NCBI GenBank assembly: GCA_044229845.1
Contig: JBGASG010000003.1
Span: 192,001-256,000 of the forward strand
Direction of reading: 5' to 3'
Source of the DNA: Candidatus Obscuribacteraceae bacterium
GTDB lineage: Bacteria; Cyanobacteriota; Vampirovibrionia; Obscuribacterales; Obscuribacteraceae
Length of the DNA: 64,000 nt
Below are positions 16,438-53,336 of the stretch, piece by piece (the first letter of the stretch is position 1; every line of letters begins with the position of its first letter). The notes under the pieces were generated by a model that saw nothing but the letters and a program-made list of their open reading frames with translations, did not search any database and was not told the DNA's origin. Position numbers and translations under genes: made by a program.

Positions 16438-17403
16438 TTGCAAGTGGTTATATACCATCCAGCGGCAATCGGTGACGTTTTACTGGCGACACCCGTCGCA
16501 CTGGCTCTGAAGCAGTACTTTGTTGATTGCCGAATCACACACGTGACGCATGCATCACTTTTTCCGCTGCTCGCCTGTTGTCCTTACATAGATGAGCTGG
16601 CGCCGGTTTCCGGCGGTCTGCTGGAGCGGCACAAAACAGTTTCTTCCTTTAAACCAGACCGCGTCGTCGATCTGTCTGGGTCTCTGAAGAGTCGCATCGT
16701 CACGTTTGCCAATGCACCAGATACGGTGCACTACAAGAAAGAAGCGAAAGCCGCACCGCCGATGATGCACGCCGTGGAGAACTTCCTGCAGACTCTGTCC
16801 GATTGGGGCGTGCCGACGCCGCAGCCGGCGTTTCCTACCCTGCCCGGATATCGCTTGCCGCCATCACCGTTGCCGGTGGCAGCGGAGACCATCGCTCTGG
16901 TTCCCGGTGTCGGCAACTTGCGCCCGCACCGCGCCTGGTCGAAAGCAAAGTGGATCGCTTTAGGTCAGAAGATCATTTCCGAGTTAGAGCGCCCGGTGAT
17001 TTTGATTGGCGGCGAAGCCGAGAGAAATCTGTGCGATGGCATTGCATCACAACTGGGCAGCGGTTGCACCAATGCTTCCGGACGTTTGAGCCTGCCGGAG
17101 AGCGCCGCCGCCATCTCGGCTTGCGACATGCTGATCTCAGGCGATACCGGTCCGGCTCACCTGGCGGTTGCAGTCGGAACGAAAGTAATCGGACTGTATG
17201 GACCGACTTTCGCCGAGCGAAGTGGTCCCTACGGGCCAACCAACCGAGTCATCAGCGTCTCACATGAATGCGAGTGCAAACAACTCAAGCAGTGTAGATT
17301 CAAACTAGAAGACGGGCGCTGTATGGACCAGATTACCTACGAAGCAGTCTACGAGCTTCTGCTCACGGCGTCCGGCGAGACGGTCGCGAAGTCGATGCAA
17401 TAG
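16438..17403 (+). CDS. glycosyltransferase family 9 (heptosyltransferase-like)
   Basis: AIGDVLLATP, HAVE, DTGPAHLAVAVG and LYGPT motifs. Start estimated at TTG 16438 after GAGGT. Confidence 0.88.
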   Translation: MQVVIYHPAAIGDVLLATPVALALKQYFVDCRITHVTHASLFPLLACCPYIDELAPVSGGLLERHKTVSSFKPDRVVDLSGSLKSRIVTFANAPDTVHYKKEAKAAPPMMHAVENFLQTLSDWGVPTPQPAFPTLPGYRLPPSPLPVAAETIALVPGVGNLRPHRAWSKAKWIALGQKIISELERPVILIGGEAERNLCDGIASQLGSGCTNASGRLSLPESAAAISACDMLISGDTGPAHLAVAVGTKVIGLYGPTFAERSGPYGPTNRVISVSHECECKQLKQCRFKLEDGRCMDQITYEAVYELLLTASGETVAKSMQ

Positions 17404-20400
17404 GTGGTCCAGTTGCGTGCGAAATCTTCGTGCGACATCTGACGAACGACTTCAAGCGGCAGATCCATCGGGAAAGCAGCAACGCTGCCGTTCTTGCGGT
17501 GGATATATCTGTAGGCATGACCGTGACGATAATCGTAGGTTGCTACAGTCATCCATTGTCCGTTGATGTACATCTCCAGTCTGGTCATGTAAGCGTCATG
17601 GGATTCAGACTCGATGGAGTTGATACGGCAGGACTGCGAGAGCGTCTCGATGAAGGGCTTGGGCTCGTTTGATTGAGATTCTGTTGGCAGCAGATTGGTT
17701 TCCGCTGTGCAGAGTGTGGCATTGTTGGCGGCCGACGCCAGTCTGTTCATCAAGCGGTATTGCTTGATCTCTTCTTCGGTCGGCAAGGTGACCGTTTCAC
17801 CCCTGCTCAGGCTGACGGTCGGATGGCCGGTGGTCGCGTCACGCTGTTCGGATAATCCGTTGACGCGCGCAAGCAACGGCCACATGGTCTGGTCTTGCAT
17901 GAGCGAATCACGCAATGCGATCGAACGCAGAGTATCGCCGAGACGAACACGGTAAACGCGTCTGTCTCCCTGCTGGGGCGGCTCTGTTGTGTCGAATTGA
18001 CCTTCCAGATCTTGTAACGAGACCGCCTGGCGGTGACCCGCACTGCGGAGCCGTTGCAAGAAGGATGCCACTTCCTGCTGGTTCTGTTCGTAGGAAATAG
18101 TGGTCGGCGGCGCATAGGCTTCGGTATTGTCGCCTTGCATTATCTCCACCTCGGGGAGAGTCACCTTTTCCATTTCCACTTGTGGGACAGTAATCGCTTC
18201 GGGGGCGACGCTGATGGCGGGAGCACTTTGTTGCTCACCAGCGGCGGTGCCACGAGCGAAGAAATGCTTTCTATGGATGTCCAATTCGGCATCTGAAGGC
18301 AACCAGATTACCTGGTCAACCAGCAGGTGCGGCGTCTTGTTGTCCGGAAGCATGTAGAACCCTGCTGAGCCGCGGTTGATAGTAATGATGAGTTGCGCAA
18401 ACCGCTCGTCGCCGAGCTGAACGCGCGCGATGGACCGGATATTGTCGCCATAACGCACCGTATAACGGCGGCGGCGGCGACCCGCAGCCTTGAACAGGTT
18501 TTGAGATTTTTGCGATTGAGAAACTTTGGCGGTACGACGGTCGCCGAAATTCAGCCCGGCTTCGGCAATCTGCATCATCCAACTTTGCAGCTTGTCAGAG
18601 ACTTGCTGATTGTTGCGAGTCGTCGATCCGGTGACGCGATCAGTGTTCTTCGCATCTTTCTTGATGGTGTCGAAATCGTCGCGATTGCCGTCGGTGCGCT
18701 GACCGCTCTTCGGTTCTGTAGACTGGATGCCGTTACCTACTATGCGGCGAGCCACATGCTCGTCTGTGCGAACAGCTTTATCTTTGCCTTCTGTCTTGCT
18801 ATCACGATCGCGCAGCGAGTTTTTGTCGGCCTTGTCGGTGCCGATGGCCATACCGAAGATTTTTGCCACGGCGTCCAGAGGACGGGCGGCTTTCGGCGCG
18901 GTTGTGTCGACTCTCTCAGTACCGGCTTTAACCAAGCAGTTCGGCTGAGTTTTGACGAGGTTGGATTTCTCGGCGATGACGTTGTTGCCGACCGAGGTCT
19001 TGGCGCCTTTGACACCACCAGGACCGGCGATCAGTTCGGCTTTGCTGACAGGCTTACCGCTCGTGTCGCCAGTGGCGATTGCTTTGTTGGCTTTGCCTGT
19101 CGTCGGGATTGCTTTGGCATCAGCCTTTTCGCCGGACAGTTGCTTGACGGAGGAGATCGATTTCGGGGAGGTGATGGCTTTGACGGCTGCATCGCTGATT
19201 ACGACCTTGCCGCTCGATTTTCCACCGACTCGCGCCGACGAAACTTTGGCGTCGGCTCCGGTTGCCATCACCATGCCTTGGGCATCGCCCTTAGCCGAGC
19301 CGGCGATTTTGACACCGAAGCGGCTACCGACCAGAGCTTTGATATCGGCATCGTTGAGAGTCAGTTTGCCGGTGGTACCAATCTTGGCACCCGAAATAGC
19401 CTTGATGTCAATCTTGTCGGTGGTAACCAGTTTGCTGGTGCCGAAGCGAGTGCCGATGATGGCTTTAACATCGGCATCGCTGACGCTCAACTTGCCGCTG
19501 CCAATTTTGATCGCCGAGACCGATTTGCCCTCTGCCTTCTTGTCGCCCACAACGACAAACTTGGCAGCATCTGCAGCACCCCCCCTGCCGCCGATGGTTC
19601 TGGTCGCATTGGCAATCGCTTTGGCATCGATTTTGATTTCGGTCTTCTCAGCCAGTCTGGAAGCTGCTGGTCTGGTGCCAGTGATGGTCTTGCCTTCGAC
19701 GAGGGTAGACACGCCGTTGCCTGACTTGGAACCGACCAGGCGTGCACCGATCGAACGGTCAGCGCCTTTTTCAGTGATGCCCTTGTCGGCAGCGGCTCCA
19801 CCCTTGGTTGCGGCGATGCCCTTATCGGCGACGACTCCACCCTTGGTTGCGGCTGTGCCCTTCTCGGCAACGACTCCACCCTTGGTTGCAGCGATGCCCT
19901 TGTCGGTTGCGCCAACCACCGGCACAGCTTTGCCGCCGGCGATTTTCGCTTCCGGTCCGACCACTTTGGTACCATTCTTGCCTTCGCCGGCAATCTTCTC
20001 GCCACCTAGAGTTCTGCTGATGGCAATGACTGGCTTGTCGCTTGCGCCCGCAACTCTAATGCCACCAGATTTGGCGTCACCAGCTTTGACCACTTCGATT
20101 TTGGGGGCATCGCCTTTGCCTGGCTGAACCTTAGCGGCAGCGATGTCTGCGGCGCGAGTGGTTCTGGTCGGGAACACGCCCAGCGTGCCGTTACCGGTCA
20201 CTTTTTCAGGCGCCAGTTTTGTAGTTGTTGTGCCAATCAAGCGTGTGCTGGCGGTGGAAATTTCATTAGGCTTAACAGCAGGCTTGCTGGCGAGCATGTG
20301 TTGACTGTCGCTACCAGGTTTAGCTTCCTTGCCGCTATCCAGGCGAGCTCTGGTCGGAAGCTGATCTCCTTTGTTTGCGACTATGGCAGTGCGGCTGGCT

Positions 20401-22649
20401 TCAACTGCGCGCGTCGTAGAAGCCGGGTTGACTGATAGAGCGGTGCGCTCGGTAGGCTTGCCGGGGACAGTAAGAGCGCTGGAGCCTTTGTCCAGAGCGG
20501 TTTTGGCTGCCATGGCTGTCGGTCCGGCTTCCGTCCTCACTACAGGCTTTTGATTCGCAGGAAGTTTTTCTGGTGTGCCAGGTTTTGCATCATCTGGCTT
20601 ACGAATGATGCCCCTCGACAAATCTCCTGCCGCCGCGCGAGTCGACGCCGCGCCTGCGATGGCTTCGCTGATGAGCTTACCCTGCCCAGGAATGACGACT
20701 ACAGGTTTTGCGACATGGTCTTTGATCTCGTTGGGCAGCACTGGTATCTTCGGATCAACTTTTGAGGAAAGGGGGATGTCTTTCGAAGTTGTAGACGCAA
20801 GCGTTGGTTGGCGAAGGGCGTTTTGGAAATCACGGAGAGTTGGAATCGGTCTTCCACCAGCAGTGGTATCATTACCTTTGCCGACGTCAGGATTGTTGGA
20901 AGCAGTTCTTGTAATGGCAGGAATTGGTGTTGGATTGATTTCGGGCTTTTGGACTCCAGTGCTAAATGCCGCCCGAGCTTCAGGAGTACGCGCCGCTGAA
21001 TCTCCCAAGTTGCGTGCGCCAGCCGCAGGCTGACTATAACCCCGAGCTTGATCGTACAAAGCATTGGTGTAAGCAGGGACTGGCTGCCCTTCCTTAGTGA
21101 CGATGGGTCGGCCCGATACCTTGACGTCAGTCGCCACGGTAGTTGTTTCTTTCGGGGGTAAAACAATAACGCTTTGACCGCTGTTAGAAGCGAGTCTGCG
21201 AGCTTCATAGACCATACCTCTCTCTTGGACTGTCGCAGCTACTTCAACTTTTCTGTACGGACTCAGACGGTCTATGCTGCCAGGTGGCTGCCCGATTGCT
21301 TCTGATATAGCGGTAGTGACGTCATTGCCGGTGTAAACGGCTTTTTGCCCCACGAATGGTCTCGTTGCGTTTCCTAACATTTGGGCAGCAGTTCCCTGTC
21401 CTGTGACAGCCTGGCTGTTGACAGACGGCGCTACATCGCGTGACGTCGGAAGAAGTCCCAGATTGCCAGGCGAGAGGACAGTTGTTGTTGCCGTGAACAA
21501 TGTCTGTGCCGCACTCGCTGCGTCATTCAGAAGAGGAGCTTTGGCAGCGGTCGTATCACCACTGAGTGCAGTCAATGGCTTGGAGGCAGAAAGAGAAGCA
21601 GGTCTCTGACCCGCATCAACGGTGTCACCAGTGATCCGATTGGCGCCAACTGCGGTTGTATCGTCAGACACGACGCCAGCAGTTCTGCGGATTCCGCTAG
21701 CGGTATCAACCACCGCTGGGGCAGCATCGCTACCGAGAGCCTTGTCGGCCAGGTTGGCGGCAGCGACACCAGCGGTGGTGGCAATCGGAACAGTTAACGG
21801 TGCGCTGCGCAAGACCGGTTGATCCGCCGAGGACAGGCTGCTAGGCAGCACCGGATCCGCGTTGCCGGTGGTCGCGGCTTTAACAATCGGTTCGGAACTA
21901 ACAGGTCTTGTTTCTGTCGGTCCAACCAAATCCGCACTGCTGGTTGCATTCATCCAGGTTTTTTCGGCAACTGTCGGTTGACCAGCAGTCGCGATCAGGT
22001 CAGCAATTCTTTGCTGGGGCTGTGGTTGCTGGTCCGGGAACTGCGTGTCGTTGGCGGAGTTAAGTACGGTCTTTGATGCGATATCGGTACCCAATGTTCT
22101 CTGCGGTGCGACAAATGATTGTGCTTCTATTGCCTTGCGAACTTCCGGACGCATCTCGGTCAGACCGGTAATGAACGTGGTGCCACGCAATTGCCGACCA
22201 TACGCATCCAGTGGGGTGTAACCGACTGAATCAGACTCGAGAACTGGGCCACTCTTTTGAGCTTGGGTCACCAAAAATCTGGCCGAGTTACCATCCTGAC
22301 CCTGAACTTCAATCACTCTATTTGTGCCGGTGCTGCCCGAGAAGTCTTTCGATTTGTCTACCGAGAGATTGCCAAAATTGAAAGCGCCGCCTGGCCCCAG
22401 AAGAGGACCGGCAGCTGGCTGGGACGCGGGTAGCGTCGGGATTGTGGTGTCATTGGTGGTACGACTGAGGGTCGGGCTGCTGCCGAGGCGAAAGGCTGCG
22501 AACGCGTCGACTGCCGGAGCTGGTTGAGTTTCGCTGGGAGCGGTCGAGACGCCCGGGAATTCCAGCCAGTGTTTCTTATCCGGGTCATCTGCTGACGCCG
22601 GTGGCTGAATATTTGTTTTGTCTGAACCAGAGAGTTCTTCCAAGGACAT
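17349..22649 (-). CDS. giant low-complexity protein, paralog A (two LysM-like domains plus conserved C-terminal domain)
   Basis: 1766 aa, no signal peptide, Ala/Gly/Lys/Thr-rich body. Contains YTVRYGDNIRSIA, YRVRLGDTLRSIA and a terminal ..DLP......EDF..NW..YC..F. Confidence 0.85.
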   Translation of the reverse strand: MSLEELSGSDKTNIQPPASADDPDKKHWLEFPGVSTAPSETQPAPAVDAFAAFRLGSSPTLSRTTNDTTIPTLPASQPAAGPLLGPGGAFNFGNLSVDKSKDFSGSTGTNRVIEVQGQDGNSARFLVTQAQKSGPVLESDSVGYTPLDAYGRQLRGTTFITGLTEMRPEVRKAIEAQSFVAPQRTLGTDIASKTVLNSANDTQFPDQQPQPQQRIADLIATAGQPTVAEKTWMNATSSADLVGPTETRPVSSEPIVKAATTGNADPVLPSSLSSADQPVLRSAPLTVPIATTAGVAAANLADKALGSDAAPAVVDTASGIRRTAGVVSDDTTAVGANRITGDTVDAGQRPASLSASKPLTALSGDTTAAKAPLLNDAASAAQTLFTATTTVLSPGNLGLLPTSRDVAPSVNSQAVTGQGTAAQMLGNATRPFVGQKAVYTGNDVTTAISEAIGQPPGSIDRLSPYRKVEVAATVQERGMVYEARRLASNSGQSVIVLPPKETTTVATDVKVSGRPIVTKEGQPVPAYTNALYDQARGYSQPAAGARNLGDSAARTPEARAAFSTGVQKPEINPTPIPAITRTASNNPDVGKGNDTTAGGRPIPTLRDFQNALRQPTLASTTSKDIPLSSKVDPKIPVLPNEIKDHVAKPVVVIPGQGKLISEAIAGAASTRAAAGDLSRGIIRKPDDAKPGTPEKLPANQKPVVRTEAGPTAMAAKTALDKGSSALTVPGKPTERTALSVNPASTTRAVEASRTAIVANKGDQLPTRARLDSGKEAKPGSDSQHMLASKPAVKPNEISTASTRLIGTTTTKLAPEKVTGNGTLGVFPTRTTRAADIAAAKVQPGKGDAPKIEVVKAGDAKSGGIRVAGASDKPVIAISRTLGGEKIAGEGKNGTKVVGPEAKIAGGKAVPVVGATDKGIAATKGGVVAEKGTAATKGGVVADKGIAATKGGAAADKGITEKGADRSIGARLVGSKSGNGVSTLVEGKTITGTRPAASRLAEKTEIKIDAKAIANATRTIGGRGGAADAAKFVVVGDKKAEGKSVSAIKIGSGKLSVSDADVKAIIGTRFGTSKLVTTDKIDIKAISGAKIGTTGKLTLNDADIKALVGSRFGVKIAGSAKGDAQGMVMATGADAKVSSARVGGKSSGKVVISDAAVKAITSPKSISSVKQLSGEKADAKAIPTTGKANKAIATGDTSGKPVSKAELIAGPGGVKGAKTSVGNNVIAEKSNLVKTQPNCLVKAGTERVDTTAPKAARPLDAVAKIFGMAIGTDKADKNSLRDRDSKTEGKDKAVRTDEHVARRIVGNGIQSTEPKSGQRTDGNRDDFDTIKKDAKNTDRVTGSTTRNNQQVSDKLQSWMMQIAEAGLNFGDRRTAKVSQSQKSQNLFKAAGRRRRRYTVRYGDNIRSIARVQLGDERFAQLIITINRGSAGFYMLPDNKTPHLLVDQVIWLPSDAELDIHRKHFFARGTAAGEQQSAPAISVAPEAITVPQVEMEKVTLPEVEIMQGDNTEAYAPPTTISYEQNQQEVASFLQRLRSAGHRQAVSLQDLEGQFDTTEPPQQGDRRVYRVRLGDTLRSIALRDSLMQDQTMWPLLARVNGLSEQRDATTGHPTVSLSRGETVTLPTEEEIKQYRLMNRLASAANNATLCTAETNLLPTESQSNEPKPFIETLSQSCRINSIESESHDAYMTRLEMYINGQWMTVATYDYRHGHAYRYIHRKNGSVAAFPMDLPLEVVRQMSHEDFARNWTTYCIDFATVSPDAVSRSS
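19770..19910 (-). repeat. 39-bp (13-aa) tandem repeat DKGIAATKGGVVA in paralog A
   Basis: CCCTTGGTTGC recurs at 19801, 19840 and 19879. Confidence 0.85.
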
Positions 22650-22858
22650 GTGGGTTGTCCCTTAAGAGTGTCCGGAACGGACCTTACAAAGAGCCCTGCT
22701 AGCTCGCTAGTAAGGGGGTACCGATGGGTGACTGGATGGGTTATTCGGTGGGTTGTTCGCCCAATGGACAAATCAAGCGCGTGTCTTGGTATATCCGTCC
22801 CTTGCTACAATTCGACAGTCACAACATTAATTCGAAACTTTGGAGGAAACGGCTCGCT

Positions 22859-23059: not shown

Positions 23060-23063
23060 GCAG

Positions 23064-26000
23064 TTAAGCTGTTTTTGTCGACGATATGGCGAGATATTCG
23101 CTGACATAGCCCTCCCATGCGCCATACAAGTCGTTATGAGCCAACTCTTTAATCACGGGTAAGGGCAAATCGAGCGCAAACGATCTTACTGCGCCGTAGC
23201 GATCATATTGATGGCGGATCCAGTTGCCTGAGTGCGATTCCTCATAACTGCGAACGCATTGCCAATCAGCGACAAAAATCTGGAGAGAGTACTGAACTTC
23301 ATTCATTGAGATTCGATCGCGAGCGATAAGCAAACGAATGTTCTGATCGAGGAAGACATGTTCACAGACCACGTCTCGCCTGGTTTCGGCAATCGTGGTT
23401 TGCGTCGCATCAGCATCAGCGGTTTTGGCAGGCGTGCACTGCTTGGACCGAAACTCGAGAATTTGCTGGCTCGAAGGCAATCGCAATTTCATTCCACGCG
23501 TCAACCTGGCTTTTGCCCTGCCAATCGCGTCGGTTTCTTGAGAGAGATTATTTACTTCAGCAAGCAGAAACCAGAGCGATTCATCTTGTAGATGCGGATG
23601 GCGGCGAGCGAGACTATTGAGCGTTTCTCCCAATCTGGCGATGCAGTAGGCTGGTTCATCAACTGATGAAGAAAGCGGACCCAATATTTTCTCGACGTTA
23701 TCGCGACGAGTCTTCTGGCGTGCAGCCTGCTCGCTGGGCAAGGTGTGCGTTGTAGCGGGCGTAGTCGTTCCTGGCATCACGTCATACCCAAACGGTAACG
23801 TAGTGGTGCGCTTGCTTGCCTTATAGCGCGTAATGTCGACGTGATTGGGCAGTTGAATCGTCAAACCAGGCTTGAGAGCCAGATAGCGGCGTCCACTCTC
23901 GATGCGCCACGGTATAGCCGATCGATTTAAGTCGAATACCAATCCGGACAATCGCTTGTCGGACAACATTCTGCGTGCGATTGATTCGAGTGTGTCGCCT
24001 GGCTGAATGACGTAGGTAACCCTTGCATTGGCAATTTTGTCTGATGCGACTTGTGCGGACTTGCGTTTTTGCGCGAGAAGAGCCATCCGGCGATCGTTCT
24101 CTTCCAGCTCGCGCTGCCGTCTGGCGTTTCTCTCTTCAGCCAATCGCTCGCGCTCTTGTCGCTGCTCCTGCTCGCGCATTTCATAGCCAAGCAGCTCGCG
24201 CTCGCGCATAGCTTGAATGGTGGCAGCATGCGCCGCATAAGCATCCATCTCGATGTCGTAGCGCTGTTCGATTTCACTTATCGCATCAACCGTCGACTCA
24301 ACGGGCACTGGCAAAACGGTCGAAGCTTGATCAGTGAGTTCAATAGTGGGCAACACAGTCGACGGATCTATCTGCGGACTGCTGCCACCATTACCACTCG
24401 CTTGCGTGTTTGTCTGCGACTGCTGCGATTGATTTGGATCGTTCGCGTTCGGGCTGGAAGCAGCCAGTATTGCTAGATTACGTTGACGCCGTTCTTCGGC
24501 ATCAAGTTCGTCCTCACAAACTTGCGCCTGACTGCTGGTTTCTTCTTGCGTATTCTCAAGCGGGGACAGCGGCTGCGTCAGCACCACCTGAGGTGTGTCG
24601 TCGTCCGGCTTCTTCTTCGTCTCTTCCGGCGGCGGTTGCAGATTGGCGTCTTCGTCGTCTTCGCCAAATAGCTTTTTGCCCTTCTTCTTCGCGGTGTCTT
24701 CCTCGGCGATCGCACCAGGTCCCTTGGGAGTAATTATCTGGATCTTGACTCCAGTCTCTGTACCTTCGGTTTTGACGGTTTCGCGTTTTGACTCGACGCT
24801 TTTCTTGCCGACCTCGGCATCTTTTTTGGCACCGTCGATCTCCTTCTTGCCGAGTTGCATTTCGATTTTGCCGTTCGGTCGTGGTTCGCCAGGTTGCTCG
24901 ACTTTACCCTCGCGCGGACGCCCAAGAGGTAAATCTTCACGCTTGATTTGCGGGTTCTCGCCGGCTCCTTTGAGCGTGCGATCGATAACTCTAAACTCAT
25001 GCGGTTCGTTTCGGCGGCTTCCATTTTCGACTTTGGATTCGCCCAAAGTGCGTCGGGTCTGATCCAATAACTCCAGCCGCGCCTGGATCCTCACTTCGTG
25101 CGGCGGGATGAACAGAACCGCTCGATCAACTCTTTCTTGAGGCCCTCTGCGATCGCTTTCCGCTGACGGTTTACCGATGAATACCAGCTGATCAAGCTTC
25201 TGTTGAAACTCCCTGATCTGTTGCGGTCTATCTTGAACCAATTCTTTTGTTGAAGAAACGAGCGGCAGCCTCTCCTTCAACGCGGGAAGCGATTTATCGA
25301 CTTTACTCTCCACCGCCAAGTCTTTTTGACCAACGACGAAATTCTCTTTACCGCGCAGGTCGAGTTTCGCCAGCAGATCAGGTTTAGTCTGCCAATCAAG
25401 CTTTGTTGGCAGATCAAGCTTTTTCGGCAGATCAAGCTTCACCGGCAGATCCAGTTTGGTGCTCAAGTTGAGTTTCGATGGCGCCTCGTCTTTGGAGCGT
25501 ATAGGCTCTACTTTGCCAGGCTGCGGTTTGACCGTTGCAGTTGATTCCTCACGATCTAGTTTGTCCACCTTGAATGCCTGTGGCTTACGCACGTCGAGAG
25601 AGTCTAGTTTCTGGAAATCGTCGCGTTTTTCCTTTGGTCCGTTTCCCGGCAGTGGCACCAAGCCTTTGTCTGCGCCTGGTTTGTCTGCGCCGGGTTTCTC
25701 TACCCAACCTCGCTTCTCGACGTTACTGCCAATCGCGGACTCGACCGGCTTGCTGCCCACATTCCCGGTGTCTACTTTGAAGTATTTATCTACCTTTTGG
25801 AGGATTTCGTTGAGAGCCCATGAGCCAAGGTTATCCACGACCTTGTTGTAAGCACCCGGTTTCGCGTCAGCCACGTTCAGCCAGCCGACATCTTTGGTTT
25901 GACCGGCATCAACAACTTTCCAACTCGTGGCATTTGCCGGGCTCGGGTCCAACTTCCATCCGGTGTAACTGGTTGAACTCGTTTCGCCTTTAGACCCGGT

Positions 26001-26879: not shown

Positions 26880-27080
26880 CAGGATTACCTGCTGAGGCCG
26901 AATGCGGCGATGTGATTCACTCACGCTGCGAGCACGCGCGAAAAGAATCATTTAGTAAGTATGGGGCGGGTGTCAGTACGATTGTACTCACAACGCCGGA
27001 ATTGTCTGCTATCCACAATACATTTCCGGCTCTGCGCACACGAATACGCAGAGAGTTAATCTACTCAGACGAAATCTGTT

Positions 27081-37612: not shown

Positions 37613-37636
37613 AAAAGGACCGGGGGGTCCCCGGTC
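37613..37636 (-). terminator. putative intrinsic terminator after paralog D
   Basis: Minus strand GACCGGGG-ACC-CCCCGGTC followed by CTTTT, overlapping the TGA stop. Confidence 0.55.
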
Positions 37637-41672: not shown

Positions 41673-41810
41673 GGGCGATCCTCGTGATTTCTGCGACGTG
41701 GACTCCGGGGCCGGAATTGCCCAAGAATCAGCCGCGAAGGCAAGCTGGGTGGCAAAATGAGTAGTAAGGGGGACAATTGCGGCTGCGAATGCGGCTAGCA
41801 AACCGCCAAA

Positions 41811-46263: not shown

Positions 46264-49200
46264 TCAAGCCGGAGATTCTGCCAGTTCTTTAGACTTCTTG
46301 TTCTTGTCTTTCTCCTTTTGAGTTTTTGGTCGATTGGCGTAGATCTGATCGATCAAGCTGCGGTTGATGTCCTTGTCGGCGACGTCTTTGAAATCCGGAG
46401 ATTGCATATTGAAGACGCCGGCTACAGTGCCTACTCTGTAGCAGAAGTACGTCCGCTCCTCTTGACCCACTACGCGGTCGATGTTGAGTTTTTCTTCGTC
46501 TGAAATAAGTTCGAACTGTGGTGAAGTATTGACCTTGTTGAAGATGTTCTGAATGGTCTGGTGCTTTACTTTACGACCGTCCACACGGAACATTTGAGGT
46601 CCTAACATATCGCCGTCCTTTTTAGCCAGCGCGAAGATGCACATGGTGCCGGTGTTGATTACTACCTGGTTGCGGTAGTCTTCCGGCAGACCTTGCAAAG
46701 TCTTGGTGGCTGCGATCAGACCGATCTGAAACTTTTTCGTTTCGCTGGTGAGCGCATCGAAAGTTTCTTTTTCAATGAATGAATCGAATTCATCGAGATA
46801 CAACGCAGTCGGCCGGCGCTTGTTGGAGTTTTTCAGCGACAGCGACAGGGCGGCCTGCTTCAAGCCGCTGACGATCAAAGAACCGAGCAAGTTGGCGTTC
46901 TGGTCCAACTGCCCTTGCGGTATTTTGACGAACAGAATCGACTTGTCGTTGATGACGTCCCGCAGGCTGAGGTCACCTTTAGCCTTTGTGAGAATCGGAC
47001 GAATACGCGGGTCACCAAGCATTGGCTGCACGCGGTTGAGAATCGGCTCGATCCAGTTCAACCATTGATCTGTACGGGCGAGGCGCTTGTAGTTGTTCCA
47101 CGCGTCTATGAGTGTGATGTACTCGGCGCGCTCGTTCTTCATGCGCTCGACCTTCTCCAACAGCACATCGCGAAAGTCGTTCTCCGCCAGCAAGGTGGGC
47201 AGGTCGGTGAGGGTACGCCCGTTAGCCATGAGCAAAATAGCGGCGTTGCGCAAAATGTTGGCGGTCTGCTGGTTCCACTGGCTCTGCGAACCAGGCGGTT
47301 CCGTATATATGGCTTTGAATCCGAACACGATTGCCGAAGCTGCGTTCTGCAGGTCGCCGTCTTCAGGAAACTCAAGCGGGTTGTAGCCAATCTGATGATC
47401 GACATCGCCGAAAGTCGGGTCGATTACAACAATCCGCTTGGCCATGTCGCGTCCCTTAGGATGAGAAGCGACCCAATCCAACAACAGATCTACCAGTCCG
47501 CCGTCGGAGTCGACCAGCACCACTGCGCGGTCAGCCGCTGCCATATCGTGAGCAATCATAGACGCCATCATGCGGCTCTTGCCTTTGGCAGCGCCGCCCA
47601 GGATCAATATGTGGGGATTCTGCTCGCGAACATCCGGCGGCATAGACAGCGTGCGCGGTGTGTAAAAGCTGAAGATGTTCCAGTCGACGCGGCTGCCGAA
47701 AGGCACGCCTCCGGGCTTCAGCCCGCGCCCAAATTCCCGCACCATCTTGGTGTGCTGCGCCTGGAACTGAGAAGGAATGTATTTCTTCTTCGCCCAGATG
47801 TTGATCATGCCGGATGGTCCGAACAGTTTCAGTGAAAGCATAGCCAGCAGGGCACCGATGCCGATGATGCCCAGGGCGACGTTGAGGAAGAACTGGTGCA
47901 TCTTCTTCGGATCTTTGCCGATGTCATCCATATTGACGCCCTTGCCGCCACCGGCACCGCCAGTATTGATTGGAATCTGGCCGCTGGCAATCTGCGTGCC
48001 GGTTGGTCCGGCTCCGGGCTCGAAGCTCTCCTGCATAAAGCCTTTGAAATCACCGACGAAGGTTTGAATCTGTCCGCGCCAGCCGAAGCCTACGCGCTTG
48101 GTGTACTTGTAGGCACCACGGAACAATGGAGCCTCTCGGGTCTGTTCATTCCCGGGCGTGATATTGGCGATGATGGCAATCGGTTTGCCTCGCGCCTGTT
48201 TATTTTCGTCGACGTACTGTTTGCCCAGTTCCATCCGTCCATTTTTGTAGGTGCCGTTCACGAAGAACAAACCGAAAGAATCCATGCCCTGTCCCTGGAC
48301 CTGTTCGCCGTTTTGCACCAGCGTCAGGTCGCCCTGGACAGATTTGCCTGCTGCCGGTCCGGGCCCGGCCGTAGCCGCCTTTGCAGGTCCCATGATCGTC
48401 TTCCATTTGCCGCCGACGTACTGTCCGCTGGACTGGCCGCCACCGCCTCCTCCAAACGGATTTGGAAATCCGCCAGCGTTGCTGCTTGTGCCGCTGCTCG
48501 GCATAGTGGGGTGCTGCTGCCCGGCATTAGAGATTGATTGTCCGAGTGAACCAAATACGGTGCTGAGAATTCCGAGCACCGGTGCCACTACCATGAATAT
48601 AACGATGCCGGCCGTCATCACGGTCTGCATCTTCATGGGTATGCCGAAAAGGCTGATCGTCTTGTCTTCGGTGACGCGATCTTCAAGACGCGGACGGCGC
48701 TTCGGCTTCTTATCCTTTTCTTCTTCATCTTCGTCGTCGTCATCTTCATCTTTGACGACGATTTTGTGTTTGGGAGGCTTGCCGTCCTCTTCGAACATCG
48801 AGGACTTGGACTTCGATTTGACCGGCTCCAATTTTTCATCGTCGTCGTCGGCAACCACCGGCTTCTTGGCCGGCGGCGGAGCGTCTGTAGTTGCACCTTC
48901 CTTTGCGGCGCGCTGGGCGCGAGCGATTGCCTCGGCAATAATCGAAGGCTGGGCACCGCTCATGGTCTGGTCTAATCCGCCCCCGGTGGTCGGACCGCCG
49001 GTCGGGCTGCCCGCACCGGCAGGCGCGCTGACAGCCGGGGCAGACGAATTTTGCGAGAAAGGACTGGCTGCTGGTTGTGATGATCCCTGAGAAAAGAAAT
49101 CTGCGCCGGAATCGAAGAAAGAGCTGTTGTTGGCTGGAGGAGCCGCCACAAAGGGAGCCGGCGCCTCGACGGGCGCCGCGACAACCGGTGCCTCAGTTAC

Positions 49201-50577
49201 GGGAGCGGCAGCCGGTGCCGCAGCCGATTCGGTGTTGACACTGTCAGTAGTGGCAGGCTCGGTGGTTGCTCCGCTGTCAGCGGCAGGCGCTGGATCGCCG
49301 GGCTTGACACCAAAAGGCAAGAACGCTGAATCATTACCGCTGGACGGTGGTGCACCAGCCGGCGCTCCGGCAAAGAAATCGCCTTTGGTCTCGGACAGTG
49401 GCTGCGTGATTGGACCGGTGGCCACTTGATTGAGTCCGCCGCCGCCAATCTGCCCCGGCCCGGTCACCACCTGATTGGGTTGCGACATTGTCTGGCTAGG
49501 CGGAGGCAACGCGGGAGCACTGGCGACCGATATGGTCGAATGCGGCTGGCTGGCGGCTGCCAGCGCCACATTGCTGGCCGGCTCGGCTATAAAAGATGCG
49601 ACCTGTGACTGGTCGGCGGCTGCCGGATTGGGAGTCGTCTCCGGTTGGGCAGCATCCGGCGGTTTATCAGCGATCGAATTCGACTGTCCGCTGTGGAAAA
49701 GCGCCCCAGCAATCGCAGCGGCGGCTGCACCGGCAGCAAATCCGCTCGCCGCGGCAGCCAGCGGAGGAATAGATGCGGACTGGTTGATGCCACCAACCGG
49801 AGCGATTGTACCGACTGGAATCGGTCCGCCTATAGGCAAGTCAGACACCGATTCATCCGAGTCAGCGTCCGAGCTGCCACCGTCGATGGTCGGTTTGATT
49901 GGCTCGGGTTGCGGCTGCGGAGCCGAATCATCCGCGGAGTCTGCCGGCATCGCTTCTTGCGGCAAAGCAAAAGAATTATCGGAAACAACCAATTTGGGCT
50001 TCTCCGATTCAGGCATGAGAGTCATGGGTTGGGCTACAGAAGCAGCCTCAGCGGCGAACTGCTCAGCAACCGGCTCCAACGAAATCAAACCCGATACGTC
50101 CTGGGCACCGCCAGTCGTTCCCGGAATTAGAGAAGCTGCACTGCCCAGGAGACTGCCTAGTTTTGATTGCGCTGCCGGCGGCACCGGCTCAGGCGGTGGA
50201 GGCGTGGCGATCGGACGTCCGGTGGCAAAGTCTATTTCGGTCGGTTGCGGCGGAACAACATTGATCGGGGCAGCGTGCGGCGAGCCCCAGGTGTTGGCGG
50301 CGGCGGCGTGTCCGTTGCCATTGCCGTTGCCATTGCCGTCCTCACCTTCTTGCATGTAGCTGTGTTGCGTATAGAGATTGCGGTACTGGTAACGGTTTAC
50401 AGCTTTTTCTAAAACAAGCGGATCGGGCGCGACAGCTACAGCCAGCGGGGCACTGGTATGCGAAATGACCGGCAGCGCGGTTGGCGAGTGCTTCGAGATG
50501 GTGGCGCCGCAATCAGGACAGGCTTTTGCCTTACCCCTGAGAATCACACCACATTGCTGGCAAATGAGAATTTCCAT
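46264..50577 (-). CDS. VirD4/TrwB-like coupling-protein ATPase 1 (zinc ribbon, disordered region, TM, beta-rich domain, TM, ATPase)
   Basis: N-terminal CQQC-x10-CPDC and two TM helices. ATPase motifs HILILGGAAKGKS, VLVDSDG, YNPL, ILRN, EPILNRV and LYLDEF. Confidence 0.87.
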   Translation of the reverse strand: MEILICQQCGVILRGKAKACPDCGATISKHSPTALPVISHTSAPLAVAVAPDPLVLEKAVNRYQYRNLYTQHSYMQEGEDGNGNGNGNGHAAAANTWGSPHAAPINVVPPQPTEIDFATGRPIATPPPPEPVPPAAQSKLGSLLGSAASLIPGTTGGAQDVSGLISLEPVAEQFAAEAASVAQPMTLMPESEKPKLVVSDNSFALPQEAMPADSADDSAPQPQPEPIKPTIDGGSSDADSDESVSDLPIGGPIPVGTIAPVGGINQSASIPPLAAAASGFAAGAAAAAIAGALFHSGQSNSIADKPPDAAQPETTPNPAAADQSQVASFIAEPASNVALAAASQPHSTISVASAPALPPPSQTMSQPNQVVTGPGQIGGGGLNQVATGPITQPLSETKGDFFAGAPAGAPPSSGNDSAFLPFGVKPGDPAPAADSGATTEPATTDSVNTESAAAPAAAPVTEAPVVAAPVEAPAPFVAAPPANNSSFFDSGADFFSQGSSQPAASPFSQNSSAPAVSAPAGAGSPTGGPTTGGGLDQTMSGAQPSIIAEAIARAQRAAKEGATTDAPPPAKKPVVADDDDEKLEPVKSKSKSSMFEEDGKPPKHKIVVKDEDDDDEDEEEKDKKPKRRPRLEDRVTEDKTISLFGIPMKMQTVMTAGIVIFMVVAPVLGILSTVFGSLGQSISNAGQQHPTMPSSGTSSNAGGFPNPFGGGGGGQSSGQYVGGKWKTIMGPAKAATAGPGPAAGKSVQGDLTLVQNGEQVQGQGMDSFGLFFVNGTYKNGRMELGKQYVDENKQARGKPIAIIANITPGNEQTREAPLFRGAYKYTKRVGFGWRGQIQTFVGDFKGFMQESFEPGAGPTGTQIASGQIPINTGGAGGGKGVNMDDIGKDPKKMHQFFLNVALGIIGIGALLAMLSLKLFGPSGMINIWAKKKYIPSQFQAQHTKMVREFGRGLKPGGVPFGSRVDWNIFSFYTPRTLSMPPDVREQNPHILILGGAAKGKSRMMASMIAHDMAAADRAVVLVDSDGGLVDLLLDWVASHPKGRDMAKRIVVIDPTFGDVDHQIGYNPLEFPEDGDLQNAASAIVFGFKAIYTEPPGSQSQWNQQTANILRNAAILLMANGRTLTDLPTLLAENDFRDVLLEKVERMKNERAEYITLIDAWNNYKRLARTDQWLNWIEPILNRVQPMLGDPRIRPILTKAKGDLSLRDVINDKSILFVKIPQGQLDQNANLLGSLIVSGLKQAALSLSLKNSNKRRPTALYLDEFDSFIEKETFDALTSETKKFQIGLIAATKTLQGLPEDYRNQVVINTGTMCIFALAKKDGDMLGPQMFRVDGRKVKHQTIQNIFNKVNTSPQFELISDEEKLNIDRVVGQEERTYFCYRVGTVAGVFNMQSPDFKDVADKDINRSLIDQIYANRPKTQKEKDKNKKSKELAESPA

Positions 50578-50660
50578 CTCGCTCTACTATCCCTTGACAT
50601 CTATGTCCTGATCTGCTTTGCCTTTTGGCTATCGTAGTTATTCCCGTCAGTTCCCCTTTT

Positions 50661-53336
50661 TCACTTTTTATCTTTATATGGCCGGTAGGCTCGAGCCAGC
50701 AACTTCATATCGACACTGTCCCTGTCGATGTCCGGAAAGTCCGGCGCCCGCATGTTGAAGACCCCGGCTACGCTGGAGACCTTGTACCAGAAGAAGGTGC
50801 GGTCCTCCTGTCCGATGATGCGATCCATATTCAGCTTTTCCTCGTCGGCAATCAGGTCATAGTTCGATATGGCTGTGTTGACGGCGTTGAAGATGTGCTG
50901 AATCGTGCGCTGCTTCGCCTGGCGACCGTCAACCCGGAAAATTTGCTTGCCTAGCGCTTCGGCGTCTTTCGGGGCGCAGGCGAAGGCGGCCATGTTGCCG
51001 ACGTTGTTGACCACGTAGTTGCGGTAGTCTTCGGGAATCTCTTGCAAACTGCGTGTCGAACAAATCAGACCCAACCCATAACGGCGGGTGTCGTTGCCGA
51101 CCAGCTGAAACATGTCTTTGTCGATGAAGGACGAAAAGTCATCGAGATAAAGCGAAGCTGGATATCGGCAGGCATCGTCTTCATGAGATAGAGACAGGGC
51201 TGCGTTTTGCACGCAACCGACAACCAATGCACCAACCAGCGAGGCATGATCGCCGAAGCGCGCCCGGGGCAACTTGACGATCACGATGCCTTGATTCTCC
51301 AGCACCGAACGAAAGTCGACGTCGTGTTTGCCACTGGATATGATGGCATTCAGTTTGGGATCGCCGAGGACGGGTTGCAACCGGTTGAGAATCGGCTCCA
51401 CCCAGTCCAGCCACTGTTCGCTGCGGGCCAACTTGCGGTAACGGCTCCAGGACTCGGAGATCATCAGCAGTTCTGCGCACTCGTCTTTGCGAGCCTCGAC
51501 AGTCTGCAACAACAGATCTCGTTCGTCGTTGTCTGTCAGCAGTGTCGGCAGATCACCGAGACTGCGACCGTTCACCGCCAGCAGCAGCAACGCACTGCGC
51601 AAGATGTGCGCCGTCTGCTGCGTCCAGGTCTGCTGTTGTCCTGGTGCAGGCGTGTATATGGCACGAAAACCTGCCACTACAGATGATGCCATATTCTGCA
51701 ACTGGCCGTCGTTCGGCTCGCGAATCGGGTTGAAGGACAGCGGCAAATCGCGCGTACCATCGATGATTCGCAAGCGTTTGGTCAGCTGGGATGCATCCTG
51801 GTGGCAGGCGATATGGCGCACCACCAGATCGGACAGCGCGCCGTCTGGATCGACGATGATCACTGCTCTGTCACCACATTCGATATCATGCACGGCCATG
51901 CCGGCCAGCAAGCGCGTCTTGCCCTTGCCGCTGCCACCGACCGCCAGGATATGAGGATTAGTGATGCGCAAATCGGCCGGCAAGTTGAGCCGGCGGGGAG
52001 CAAGGTGCCAGGGCGCCCAGTCGATGCGCGTCCCCAGCGGCAGCGAACCGGCAGTCAGCCCTCGTCCATACTGCGAAAGCCATTTGTTTTGATCGCCCTT
52101 GTGACGAGTCGGCACATACTGCTTGCGACTCTTTATATTGATATAGCCGTTCGGTCCGAATATTTTCACCGAGGCGCCGATCAGCCCGAAGCTGAGCAGC
52201 AAAAAGCCGAGCAGCGACTTCAAGAACAGATCGCGCAACCAGTCGCCCGAGGGAGGATGCACCAGCAAGTAGAAGAAGTCGCGACGATTCGCTTCCCAGG
52301 TGCCGCGACCGCCGGACATGATCCAGCCGCTCAGGCGTCCCTCGCTCAAGTGTCCCTGTCCATCAAATCGCAGTCCGCGCTGTCCAGGAACCAGCGATCG
52401 TTGACCGAGCGAGACACTGCCATTATCGAGGGCAATGCCGGACAGTCCATCACCGCCCGCCGACAGGGGTGTGCCGGTCAGTCCGGTGCCGCGCCGCTGC
52501 AGGTGCACGAAGAAACTGCGCGTCTTGACGCCCAGCGTCGTATACTGGACCTGCCAGATGCCTTCATCACTGTAACCGCTCAGTAGCGGCGTCTGCGTGG
52601 CTGCTATCAGCATGACGGCGGCCAGGACGGCGGCGCCGAAGACATAGAGCTGACGGGCCGAGGGTACTCCGGCTGACGCAAATTTAGCGCTCTGTCGACG
52701 CTTGCGCGCAGCTTTTGTGGGCTCAGGCAGGACGACTGCCGGCTCTTGCTCTGCAGATCTCGTGAGTCTTGCTACCACCTGTGGTGAGTCGGCGGCGGTC
52801 GATTTTGCCACCGCCTTTGCCACTATCGGCGGCGGCGGGTCCGGTTGTTGTTTCGCCACTGCTGGCGGTACCACTGCCGGTGGCGGCGCGGGCGACGGCG
52901 CGGTCTGTTCTGCCACCGCCGGCGGAGCCGGTACGGAGCGCAGGGCCGGTATCATGTTGACAGCGTTGGCGAAAAAGTCGGCAGCCTGCTCGCTGGCTGG
53001 CTTTTCTTCCATGAAAGTGAGTGATTGGATCGGCACGTCCGGTGCCGGTTGCGGCTGAGATTGAGCCCCCGCCACTGAAGCTGCCGGTGCCGTATGAGGC
53101 AGGGGCGACTCAGTCGGGTCGGGGAGCGAAAACGGCTGAGCCTGGACCGCTACCGGAGACACAACGGCGACCGGCGCGGACGGTCGACTCTCGCCGGCTT
53201 TCAGTGGTTGAAGATTGATGTTCGCTCGCGACGATCTGGTCGCAGAAATTGAGGAGACTTTCAGTCCGCATTCGCTGCAGAACTTGTCCTTTTCTCGAAT
53301 TACATTGCCGCAATGGTGGCAAAAAAGGAGGTCCAC
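50661..53336 (-). CDS. VirD4/TrwB-like coupling-protein ATPase 2 (paralog of 46264-50577)
   Basis: CHHC-x10-CSEC and two TM helices. HILAVGGSGKGKT, IVDPDG, FNPI and LYLDDF. Shares the FRVDGR..DEEKLN.DR..GQE.RT..VAGVFNM tail. Confidence 0.87.
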   Translation of the reverse strand: MDLLFCHHCGNVIREKDKFCSECGLKVSSISATRSSRANINLQPLKAGESRPSAPVAVVSPVAVQAQPFSLPDPTESPLPHTAPAASVAGAQSQPQPAPDVPIQSLTFMEEKPASEQAADFFANAVNMIPALRSVPAPPAVAEQTAPSPAPPPAVVPPAVAKQQPDPPPPIVAKAVAKSTAADSPQVVARLTRSAEQEPAVVLPEPTKAARKRRQSAKFASAGVPSARQLYVFGAAVLAAVMLIAATQTPLLSGYSDEGIWQVQYTTLGVKTRSFFVHLQRRGTGLTGTPLSAGGDGLSGIALDNGSVSLGQRSLVPGQRGLRFDGQGHLSEGRLSGWIMSGGRGTWEANRRDFFYLLVHPPSGDWLRDLFLKSLLGFLLLSFGLIGASVKIFGPNGYINIKSRKQYVPTRHKGDQNKWLSQYGRGLTAGSLPLGTRIDWAPWHLAPRRLNLPADLRITNPHILAVGGSGKGKTRLLAGMAVHDIECGDRAVIIVDPDGALSDLVVRHIACHQDASQLTKRLRIIDGTRDLPLSFNPIREPNDGQLQNMASSVVAGFRAIYTPAPGQQQTWTQQTAHILRSALLLLAVNGRSLGDLPTLLTDNDERDLLLQTVEARKDECAELLMISESWSRYRKLARSEQWLDWVEPILNRLQPVLGDPKLNAIISSGKHDVDFRSVLENQGIVIVKLPRARFGDHASLVGALVVGCVQNAALSLSHEDDACRYPASLYLDDFSSFIDKDMFQLVGNDTRRYGLGLICSTRSLQEIPEDYRNYVVNNVGNMAAFACAPKDAEALGKQIFRVDGRQAKQRTIQHIFNAVNTAISNYDLIADEEKLNMDRIIGQEDRTFFWYKVSSVAGVFNMRAPDFPDIDRDSVDMKLLARAYRPYKDKK

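Follow-up and report, generated by a model that had tools for sequence, protein, structure and literature searches.

A divergent VirB4- and VirD4-like ATPase pair and its giant disordered partner proteins: a possible envelope-delivery machine of the Obscuribacterales

VirB4 and VirD4 are components of large type IV secretion system (T4SS) machines found on mobile elements. What do relatives of these two ATPases do at a chromosomal locus whose other genes encode giant, largely disordered proteins? This question is raised by a 64,000-nucleotide (nt) stretch of a Candidatus Obscuribacterales genome (assembly GCA_044229845.1, contig JBGASG010000003.1, positions 192,001 to 256,000), referred to here as the window. 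Eight open reading frames (ORFs) form an unbroken minus-strand run from position 53336 down to 17349 (Table 1) and encode, in that order, two VirD4/TrwB-like membrane ATPases (ATP2 and ATP1), a soluble VirB4-like ATPase, an acidic protein and four giants ending in one common C-terminal cassette. An earlier note, made from the sequence without database searches, had described eight co-oriented genes over about 36 kb at these positions, and the ORF list confirms all eight. The reading tentatively preferred here is that a domesticated, T4SS-derived two-ATPase machine handles the giant disordered proteins through their C-terminal module, probably delivering them to the peptidoglycan or envelope. 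That the giants dock on the ATPases and are recognised by them, that they are translocated and in which direction, that they bind peptidoglycan and where they finally reside are elements of this reading that we infer.

The soluble ATPase matches DUF87 (PF01935) above the Pfam cut-off (29.8 versus 23.2 bits) and has no hydrophobic segment. It consists of an N-terminal alpha/beta domain (residues ~40-350), a P-loop core (~380-790, with the motifs GVTGGGKT and MLIEEAH) and a cysteine-containing helical C-terminal domain (~820-1060). The overall predicted local distance difference test score (pLDDT) of its structural model is 63; most of the N-terminal domain scores 75-90 and most of the C-terminal domain 70-85, and the P-loop core is poorly modelled. 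The ten best Foldseek matches of this model are all TrwK/VirB4 of plasmid R388 (~900 columns, expect value (E) 1.3e-10 to 1e-7), and VIA-align superposes 570 residues of TrwK over model residues 40-806 (Z 14.8). HerA chains, by comparison, align only from residue ~371 (Z 10-12; Sulfolobus HerA, Z 12.1 over 371-793) and leave residues 1-370 unaligned, whereas TrwK/VirB4 aligns from residue 40. The N-terminal domain of the model also matches chains of ESX-3 (Z 9.8) and ESX-5 (Z 7.2). The earlier note had called this protein HerA/VirB4-like. Its DUF87 core stands, and of the two labels the model favours VirB4-like, as a two-domain ATPase that follows VirB4 over both domains.

The sequence-based families are considerably less informative about this ATPase. 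The source genome is a metagenome-assembled genome (MAG) that is 88% complete, which bounds every absence taken from the genome searches reported here. CagE_TrbE_VirB (PF03135) goes unmatched throughout the genome at E<=0.01, the 1072-amino-acid (aa) ATPase included. Scores of the NCBIfam HerA equivalogs on the ATPase fall far under their cut-offs, and its profile returns one weak HerA match among PDB sequences. FtsK_SpoIIIE (PF01580) reaches 16 bits on it. The earlier note had left open that VirB or type VII genes might lie elsewhere in the genome: of the VirB families searched (VirB4, VirB6, VirB8 and VirB10), none rises above its cut-off there, and FtsK_SpoIIIE reaches 26 bits at best, in a search that did not extend to WXG100 proteins. 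In the ESM Atlas the protein falls with clusters of DUF87+DUF8350+HerA_C architecture from Actinomycetota and Bacillota (feature similarity 0.98). Across genera of the order, its identity is 77-87%.

The two membrane ATPases are paralogues (phmmer E 1e-169) built on a common plan: an N-terminal zinc ribbon, a low-complexity stretch, two hydrophobic segments flanking a loop, and a C-terminal P-loop domain. ATP1 matches TrwB_AAD_bind at 33.4 bits, above the Pfam cut-off of 20.5; ATP2 reaches 16.4 bits, below it, and matches Zn_Ribbon_1 at 26.5 bits. In ATP1 the low-complexity stretch spans ~640 aa, the hydrophobic segments (646-680 and 893-922) enclose a loop domain of ~210 aa, and the P-loop domain occupies residues 980-1304. 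ATP2 has a disordered region, hydrophobic segments at 226-254 and 369-394 with a ~115-aa loop between them, and the motifs GGSGKGKT and YLDDF. With this topology, the loops of 115-210 aa would face the periplasm and the zinc-ribbon N-termini would be cytoplasmic. Walker A and B motifs read as intact in ATP1, ATP2 and the VirB4-like ATPase. ATP1 is the orthologue of the single VirD4-like copy found in most relatives, and its ATPase domain shares 45-76% identity with the 60 other rows of the alignment (58-76% among orthologues). Its distance from characterized families is large: it scores 31 bits against the NCBIfam VirD4-like CD1115 model, far under that model's cut-off, and the scores of the VirD4/TraD models are likewise far under theirs. 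Identity of the ATPase domain to plasmid T4SS coupling proteins is 21-27%, its profile gives 0 matches among PDB sequences, and the ATP1 loop domain (residues 685-895) has no usable match in the ESM Atlas. The block therefore holds the two signature ATPases of T4SSs, both highly divergent.

Between the ATPases and the giants lies the acidic gene, whose start overlaps the end of the VirB4-like gene by 11 nt. Its product has a hyper-acidic, disordered N-terminal half and a conserved C-terminal domain of ~150 aa, which shares 37-50% identity in 41 relatives. The protein has no family match in Pfam or NCBIfam, and a profile of the C-terminal domain has 0 matches among PDB sequences. A relationship of this domain to the DUF7718 domain of the giants was considered and rejected (profile-profile probability 0.14%).

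The four giants combine dissimilar bodies with homologous C-termini, as the earlier note had described. No pairwise similarity is found among the bodies (best BLASTP E 0.83). In contrast, the last 324-456 aa form a cassette with 48 invariant columns, in which the other giants are 40, 34 and 29% identical to giant 1; a cassette profile matches the four genes at E 1e-88 to 3e-176, which rules out sharing by chance. The bodies contain 2 cysteines in their 6282 residues, compared with 11-13 per 625-1072 aa in local enzymes, and disorder-promoting residues make up ~70-73% of them. The body of giant 1 is of low complexity and free of cysteine, and that of giant 2, also without cysteine, holds several internal repeat families. 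The statement that the giants lack Sec signals holds as far as a hydrophobicity scan, the one method applied, can tell: no signal-like or hydrophobic segment was found by it in the four window giants or in 12 of 12 complete relatives. Complete members as short as 458-780 aa exist among the relatives. In their few cysteines, their disorder and their dissimilar bodies, the giants look like exported unfolded substrates, a resemblance read from composition. Public gene calls start giant 1 at Met44 (about 41672), giving 1345 aa. In the public record of the same species (L091:15339-18506) the giant 1 orthologue is annotated as two proteins (340 and 1011 aa); its open frame is 1056 aa there and 1402 in the window, which a frameshift, or differing assembly of this repetitive gene, may explain.

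The cassette comprises two LysM-like domains, then usually a Cys4 zinc ribbon, then DUF7718. It was modelled with AlphaFold2 from an alignment of the 4 window cassettes and 50 further ones from relatives' loci. The model places LysM1 at 1-80, LysM2 at 160-233, the zinc ribbon at 249-275 and DUF7718 at 350-446, with disordered linkers between them. The claim of a cassette common to all four giants is thus upheld, and its composition is corrected to two LysM-like domains plus DUF7718; the zinc ribbon occurs in one of the four window giants (giant 1), not in giants 2-4, and is present in the consensus of the 54 family members. DUF7718 is modelled, mostly at pLDDT >90, as six strands followed by a long helix at the C-terminus. 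In Pfam terms, DUF7718 (PF24839) is above its cut-off of 25 bits in giant 2 (30.3) and below it in giant 4 (22.4); Pfam lists neither giant 1 nor giant 3, whose homology to giant 2 is established by phmmer (E 3e-20 and 6e-5) and by the alignment. LysM (PF01476) exceeds its cut-off of 20.9 bits in three giants (26.8, 21.4 and, in giant 4, 22.0), with only the first 16-31 profile positions aligned; its assignment in giant 2 is via the alignment only. Both LysM folds have pLDDT >90 in the model and superpose on LysM domains with Z 6.6-7.0 and a root-mean-square deviation of 1.8-2.7 A. Wall binders, the cytoplasmic protein Kbp (Z 6.6) and LysM-like domains of contractile-injection baseplates (Z 6.2-7.0) are matched alike, and most cassettes carry a Cys4 zinc ribbon. 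The LysM domains consequently cannot serve as the sign of an extracytoplasmic place for which the earlier note had taken them. Binding of the LysM pair to peptidoglycan or N-acetylglucosamine (GlcNAc) glycans is possible on the modelled fold, which wall and non-wall proteins share. Against PDB sequences, the cassette profile gives weak LysM/Kbp matches only.

Among 1.84 billion proteins, the cassette profile finds 1329 representatives at E<=1e-3 and 280 at E<=1e-30. Among the matches listed, those reaching the end of the profile sit at or near the C-terminus of proteins of 277-5895 aa, and named members are LysM peptidoglycan-binding or hypothetical proteins of Obscuribacterales or 'Cyanobacteria bacterium'. 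Within the source genome, the ATPases, the acidic domain and DUF7718 are found nowhere outside the block, which contains all four DUF7718 genes. Other giants of this genome differ in their C-termini. A 1560-aa protein (G000:C8:363817-368496, plus strand) ends in the same LysM pair without DUF7718, and three of 1847-2030 aa (C21:33279-38819, C22:185638-191727 and C22:192337-198120) have His/Asp-rich N-termini, hydrophobic segments near the C-terminus and weak LysM-like matches only. A stand-alone DUF7718 ORF of 111 aa (68 bits) in a cyanobacterium (L118:7328-7892, genome G259) overlaps an 84-aa ORF; this pair adjoins a DNA methylase-Mrr fusion and a YhgA-like transposase gene and could be a two-gene module of a mobile or defence island. 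The contexts of stand-alone DUF7718 ORFs in two cyanobacterial genomes were uninformative.

If ATPases and giants work together, they should be found together. Co-occurrence was followed in 151 genomes of the class, evenly drawn in one draw and including the window's own, in which the order consists of families f1 and f2. The cassette is present in 33 of them (f1 30/30, f2 2/2) and the VirB4-like ATPase in 31 (f1 28/30, f2 2/2); the VirD4-like ATPase occurs in the same 31 genomes, the same 28 of f1 among them. None of the three is found in the other nine families (0/118). The two f1 genomes without the ATPases are 92% and 86% complete. Because the sampled genomes are kin, these counts describe a clade-wide trait and not independent events. 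The 78 related loci come nearly all from Candidatus Obscuribacterales, Obscuribacter or Melainabacteria MAGs. In f2, the VirB4-like gene is triplicated (copies 57-62% identical). Two Ser/Thr kinase genes, one of whose products has hydrophobic segments and TPR, adjoin a trio of VirB4-like genes and a 6341-aa ORF there (L023/L024/L112; G025:C129). It was also considered whether the system replaces a missing FtsK; this was rejected, since FtsK_SpoIIIE is nearly absent class-wide (3/151 genomes at E<=1e-10, versus 8/14 controls in the same strict search), leaving no complementary distribution.

Linkage was assessed in 73 loci of f1 type, of which 59 extend 2.5 kb or more beyond the VirB4-like gene on its downstream side and 61 include upstream sequence. 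A cassette gene directly follows the ATPase/acidic block in 55 of the 59 informative loci, and 52 of these genes reach DUF7718. The acidic gene follows the VirB4-like gene in 49/59, and a VirD4-like gene is present at 60/61, with a second tandem paralogue at 10. Four of the 59 lack a cassette gene: in two, less than 3 kb of downstream sequence is available; one continues into ordinary genes; and the last carries a co-oriented giant, longer than 3254 aa, whose frame is cut by the end of the locus. A listed cassette match and the VirB4-like gene are at most ~20 kb apart in at least 27 of the 31 sampled genomes, all but G017, G063 and the two f2 genomes. The co-distribution of all components within one order and their linkage support the claim, made in the earlier note, that ATPases and giants belong together. 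The gene order DinG-Usp-PHO4-GT9 / giants-acidic-VirB4-like-VirD4-like-up710-SelA is kept in other genera. In three of these genomes (G010, G013 and G016) the VirB4-like ATPase shares 80-83% identity with that of the window, as against 38-81% for PHO4, DinG, SelA, GT9 and Usp; cassettes among relatives share 20-45%. The block is vertically inherited and non-mobile, in conserved housekeeping synteny, and these identities show strong purifying selection on the motors beside hypervariable clients.

One rival to delivery of the giants is the movement of DNA. The block would then be a chromosomally fixed remnant or variant of a conjugation or DNA-uptake system, in which the ATPases move DNA and the giants are accessory, wall-anchored mating or contact proteins. 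Members of the VirD4/TrwB family and relatives of HerA and VirB4 do move DNA, and the block ATPases have weak NCBIfam matches to TraD, CedD and HerA models. In a tblastn search of plasmids, the VirB4-like protein matched 47 records; Rhodococcus and Streptomyces plasmids alone gave full-length matches, at ~32% identity over 83-86% of its length (E as low as 4e-137). The relative on Rhodococcus opacus pRoPD630_2 follows mobC and a relaxase gene, with two hypotheticals between, 5 kb from a T4SS, and that of a Streptomyces sp. NBC_00105 plasmid lies near a replication-relaxation gene; an Anabaena plasmid copy has a different context. The plasmid DUF87 relatives resemble the block ATPase at 32-36% identity (three of five records cover 83-86% of it, two 64-65%). 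They differ from it in standing beside relaxase/T4SS genes or in varied plasmid contexts, without a neighbouring VirD4-like paralogue of the block type or LysM/DUF7718 giants. Together, the plasmid and coupling-protein matches support a conjugation-related ancestry, which keeps a DNA-related function among the rivals.

As a present function, however, DNA translocation appears distinctly improbable. Relaxase (PF03432), TrwC (PF08751) and MobA_MobL (PF03389) have no match in the genome, other relaxase families such as Mob_Pre lying outside the search, and T4SS-DNA_transf/TraG (PF02534) is likewise unmatched. No integrase, origin-of-transfer (oriT)-type context or mobile-element signature accompanies the block; its flanks are conserved housekeeping genes and its distribution is strictly vertical. 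A DNA-moving role would also leave the conserved link to the DUF7718 cassette without a role. Within the window, no relaxase, VirB, pilin, integrase or nuclease family was found among ORFs of at least 150 aa, shorter ones being unscanned, and the earlier statement that none is recognisable holds for that size range. Its inference that this is not a conjugation module is supported by three relaxase and five T4SS families without a match above cut-offs and by the conserved housekeeping synteny. In short, the block fails T4SS membership on all features but the coupling-protein domain and the VirB4 fold.

The DUF87 core also resembles that of HerA, whose family is marked by a HerA-type N-terminal barrel and a NurA nuclease partner. 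The block ATPase resembles HerA-NurA and the Sir2-HerA and DUF4297-HerA complexes in its P-loop core (Z 10-12 to HerA chains) and differs in its N-terminal domain, which follows VirB4; no nuclease or Sir2 partner was seen, and NurA was not searched for. A HerA-type conflict or anti-phage defence system, with the giants as sensors or effectors, would account for Foldseek matches to the Sir2-HerA and DUF4297-HerA complexes, for the stand-alone DUF7718 ORF beside restriction-modification and transposase-like genes in one cyanobacterium, and for the PADLOC matches. The latter are all weak and partial (E 4e-13 to 8e-7 range): HerA models match the VirB4-like ATPase at E down to 4e-13 in its C-terminal part only, and 'mad8' models match all three ATPases at E 8e-11 to 3e-9. 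PADLOC 2.0 defines no defence system here and has no match for the acidic protein or the giants. Whereas patchy distribution and mobility characterize defence systems, the block keeps a fixed locus in 31-33 of the order's 33 sampled genomes. Searches for effector domains such as nuclease, Sir2 or TIR found none, and VirB4 structures rank above defence HerA proteins among the matches. A defence role is very improbable.

A third possibility, put forward in the earlier note, is that the giants are polymorphic effectors, toxins or adhesins delivered by the ATPase set to prey, hosts or competitors. Polymorphic N-terminal bodies on a constant C-terminal handle, and several giant copies per genome, would suit such cargo, and one of 15 other family members carries RHS repeats (61.7 bits). 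A predatory member of the class, Vampirovibrio, uses a T4SS, though a canonical T-type system distinct from the present block (PMC4451040). The giants themselves do not look like weapons. In the four window giants and in 14 of the 15 others, no domain of a toxin, enzyme, immunity-like protein or adhesin was detected; the ORF list shows no small gene of immunity type after the giants; and T4SS-family searches of the genome returned no apparatus able to cross a target envelope. Moreover, the system is fixed throughout the sampled genomes of the order in a housekeeping context, which fits a core envelope function better than an accessory weapon. The effector proposal is accordingly set aside as rather improbable.

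Delivery of the giants to the cell envelope, the reading preferred here, would proceed as follows. A VirD4-like coupling protein in the inner membrane, a soluble VirB4-like hexameric motor and a small acidic partner would form the machine, the remaining T4SS parts having been lost or never present. Its clients would be a fast-evolving family of giant, cysteine-free, largely disordered proteins. The folded C-terminal module would dock a giant on the ATPase complex, with DUF7718 as the family-specific handle; the ATPases would thread the unfolded body through the inner membrane; and the LysM pair would hold the giant on peptidoglycan. The cell would thereby gain a layer of long and flexible polypeptides, in the envelope or on the surface, that diversify rapidly and look more like structural or adhesive proteins than toxins. 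Translocation is favoured because of the roles of the motor families, the topology of the coupling ATPases, the absence of Sec-type N-termini and the near-zero cysteine content of the clients. It is also favoured because ultra-conserved motors stand beside hypervariable multi-copy clients with a constant handle and because one member carries RHS repeats; RHS-repeat proteins are usually exported. The stronger proposal of a minimal protein-export class, in which the VirB4-like and VirD4-like ATPases alone thread the giants by a LysM-LysM-(zinc ribbon)-DUF7718 handle into a wall-fixed, fast-evolving envelope brush, is slightly more doubtful. Co-folding of the VirD4-like ATPase domain with DUF7718 scored 0.00 in a run without controls and counts neither way.

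Comparison with established secretion systems shows both the appeal and the strain of this reading. T4SS effectors are recognised through a conserved C-terminal domain, as in the XVIPCD effectors of Xanthomonas. The block shares with T4SSs a VirD4/TrwB-like membrane coupling ATPase, a two-domain VirB4-like ATPase by fold, and clients with variable bodies and one constant C-terminal domain. Unlike them, the block and genome have no matches to VirB3, VirB6, VirB8, pilin or relaxase families, the VirB4 and TraG sequence families are unmatched, the locus is chromosomally fixed and vertically inherited, and the clients are disordered proteins of 1300-6000 aa with LysM pairs. In type VII secretion, the FtsK-like membrane ATPase EccC/EssC recognises C-terminal signals. 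The parallels are a membrane-anchored FtsK/HerA-superfamily ATPase with two transmembrane segments, C-terminally marked substrates without Sec signals, and the ESX-like N-terminal domain of the VirB4-like model; against them stand the low FtsK_SpoIIIE score and the absence of EccB, EccD and EccE-like genes from the block in Pfam searches, which left WXG100 aside. Type I secretion exports giant repetitive RTX-type adhesins, which are likewise cysteine-poor, without N-terminal signals and governed by a C-terminal module. Here, however, the motor is not an ABC transporter, the block has no membrane-fusion or TolC genes, and RTX or Ig-like repeats were not detected.

Several observations weigh against delivery to the envelope. 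No channel-forming or outer-membrane component is present in the block; TrbL/VirB6 (PF04610) and VirB8 (PF04335) are unmatched in the genome, and TrbI/VirB10 (PF03743) has sub-cut-off matches only (best 33.5 bits versus 35). The nearest full-length relatives of the motor, beside relaxase genes on actinobacterial plasmids, point to DNA rather than protein. The proposed handle is itself ambiguous: DUF7718 has no clear structural relative, its best Z of 6.0 (DUF3836 and a Xanthomonas T4SS-related protein) lying within the range that VIA calls common, and it occurs alone in small ORFs of 4/300 other genomes of the phylum and of a Thermus control. Three of the giants neighbouring the ATPases hold the LysM pair without DUF7718, and some cassette genes sit away from the ATPases. 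In f2, two VirB4-like copies flank a 6341-aa giant without a Pfam domain or cassette-profile match, and the VirD4-like gene (61% identity) and the cassette gene lie on other contigs, both at contig ends; co-occurrence therefore holds in this family, and adjacency cannot be judged. The gene arrangement is also less uniform than the window suggests. Giant and ATPases are transcribed towards each other in 54 of the 55 linked loci; L091, of the window's own species, alone is co-oriented. The co-oriented array of the earlier note thus holds in the window and is peculiar to its species: in the 54 convergent loci giants and ATPases do not form one operon, and the 36-kb co-oriented array is a lineage-specific elaboration of a simpler core.

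The Cys4 zinc ribbon in the cassette consensus and the equal match of the LysM folds to Kbp and baseplate proteins weigh in the same direction, and they lead to the most serious rival, a cytoplasmic machine without export. The giants would then be disordered scaffolds or tethers, cytoplasmic or membrane-proximal, whose module binds proteins or a small ligand, and the ATPases would assemble, remodel or pull them; such a machine might, for instance, serve the cytoskeleton, segregation, condensates or motility in a manner specific to the order. Cys4 zinc ribbons are more usual in cytoplasmic proteins, and here they occur in the cassette as well as in the presumably cytoplasmic N-termini of both VirD4-like proteins. 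Low cysteine and high disorder suit cytoplasmic disordered proteins too, neither a signal peptide (by the hydrophobicity scan) nor channel genes were found, and the VirB4-like ATPase is conserved above neighbouring housekeeping genes, which suggests a core cellular role. Conversely, both ATPase families are translocases of polymers across or at membranes, and the loops between the VirD4-like hydrophobic segments would, on the topology proposed, face the periplasm. Hypervariable clients of variable copy number resemble surface or exported repertoires more than housekeeping scaffolds, and the family includes the RHS-repeat member. A cytoplasmic function is considered unlikely, though less so than any of the other rivals.

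The features of the block and its immediate surroundings are collected in Table 1.

Table 1. Positions in the window of the ATPase and giant genes, the divergent neighbour and the intervening region.
Feature	Position	Strand	Description
ATP2, VirD4/TrwB-like membrane ATPase paralogue 2	50661..53336	-	891 aa; Zn_Ribbon_1, sub-cut-off TrwB_AAD_bind
ATP1, VirD4/TrwB-like membrane ATPase paralogue 1	46264..50577	-	1437 aa; TrwB_AAD_bind above cut-off
VirB4-like (DUF87/HerA-superfamily) soluble ATPase	42896..46114	-	1072 aa; DUF87 and model
Acidic protein	42001..42906	-	301 aa; 25.9% D+E
Giant 1 (G1)	37635..41801	-	1388 aa as ORF; cassette 37638-38990, including zinc ribbon
Giant 2	27081..37412	-	3443 aa; cassette 27084-28451; DUF7718 above cut-off
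Giant 3	23064..26951	-	1295 aa; cassette 23067-24038, shortest of the four (324 aa)
Giant 4	17349..22649	-	1766 aa; cassette 17352-18488
up710, divergent neighbour	53828..55888	+	disordered/coiled-coil; conserved ~60-aa C-terminal domain; no hydrophobic segment
Divergent intergenic region, ATP2 gene to up710	53337..53827	.	~490 nt; presumed promoter region

The flanks of the block are housekeeping genes, with FeoB, an M16 peptidase, DinG, Usp, PHO4 and GT9 on one side and SelA, SpoU and EF-Tu on the other. The 3' end of giant 4 overlaps the 3' end of the convergent GT9 glycosyltransferase ORF by 55 nt (17349-17403). The divergent neighbour up710 occupies the same place in G010, G013 and G016, at 41-52% identity, and is present in most loci; it is at most a candidate part of the system. 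Its last ~60 residues (55700-55888, plus strand) recur in two short ORFs of the source genome, at G000:C8:439850-440185 and G000:C18:134109-134759 (E 1e-21 and 4e-6). Between up710 and SelA, an 876-aa protein with TPR, cyclic-nucleotide-binding and DUF4388 domains (55936-58566, minus strand) is found among the related loci only in L091 and looks like a species-specific insertion. On the other side, a 230-aa protein with a canonical C-terminal LysM of 32.3 bits (11584-12276, plus strand), unrelated to the cassette, lies just upstream of DinG, a pairing kept in G010 and G016. Short, low-depth metatranscriptome contigs from four studies cover 13-27 of 30 bins of the block at >=95% identity. Such contigs mark presence in RNA libraries, not transcription, strand or operon structure, and uncovered bins carry no meaning; they are weakly compatible with expression of the block, which they leave unproven.

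The components of this locus come from known superfamilies, and public annotation calls them 'hypothetical', 'DUF87' or 'LysM'. A literature search, with subscription journals outside its scope, found no paper mentioning DUF7718, this gene set, or Vampirovibrionia together with DUF87. An average of 616 unknown protein families per genome is given for the Obscuribacterales in one preprint (10.1101/2022.01.26.477801). In this order of non-photosynthetic cyanobacterial relatives, an orphan VirB4/VirD4 pair is now a core chromosomal feature, present in 31 of the 33 sampled genomes. If export proves true, the block would represent a new secretion route for very large proteins and a domestication of conjugation ATPases; if there is no export, it would represent a new cytoplasmic use of VirB4/VirD4-type motors. 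Either outcome would provide the first functional context for DUF7718 and for a broad DUF87 subfamily, and would account for the tens of kilobases of 'dark' coding sequence that each genome of this little-studied, uncultured sister lineage of the cyanobacteria contains.

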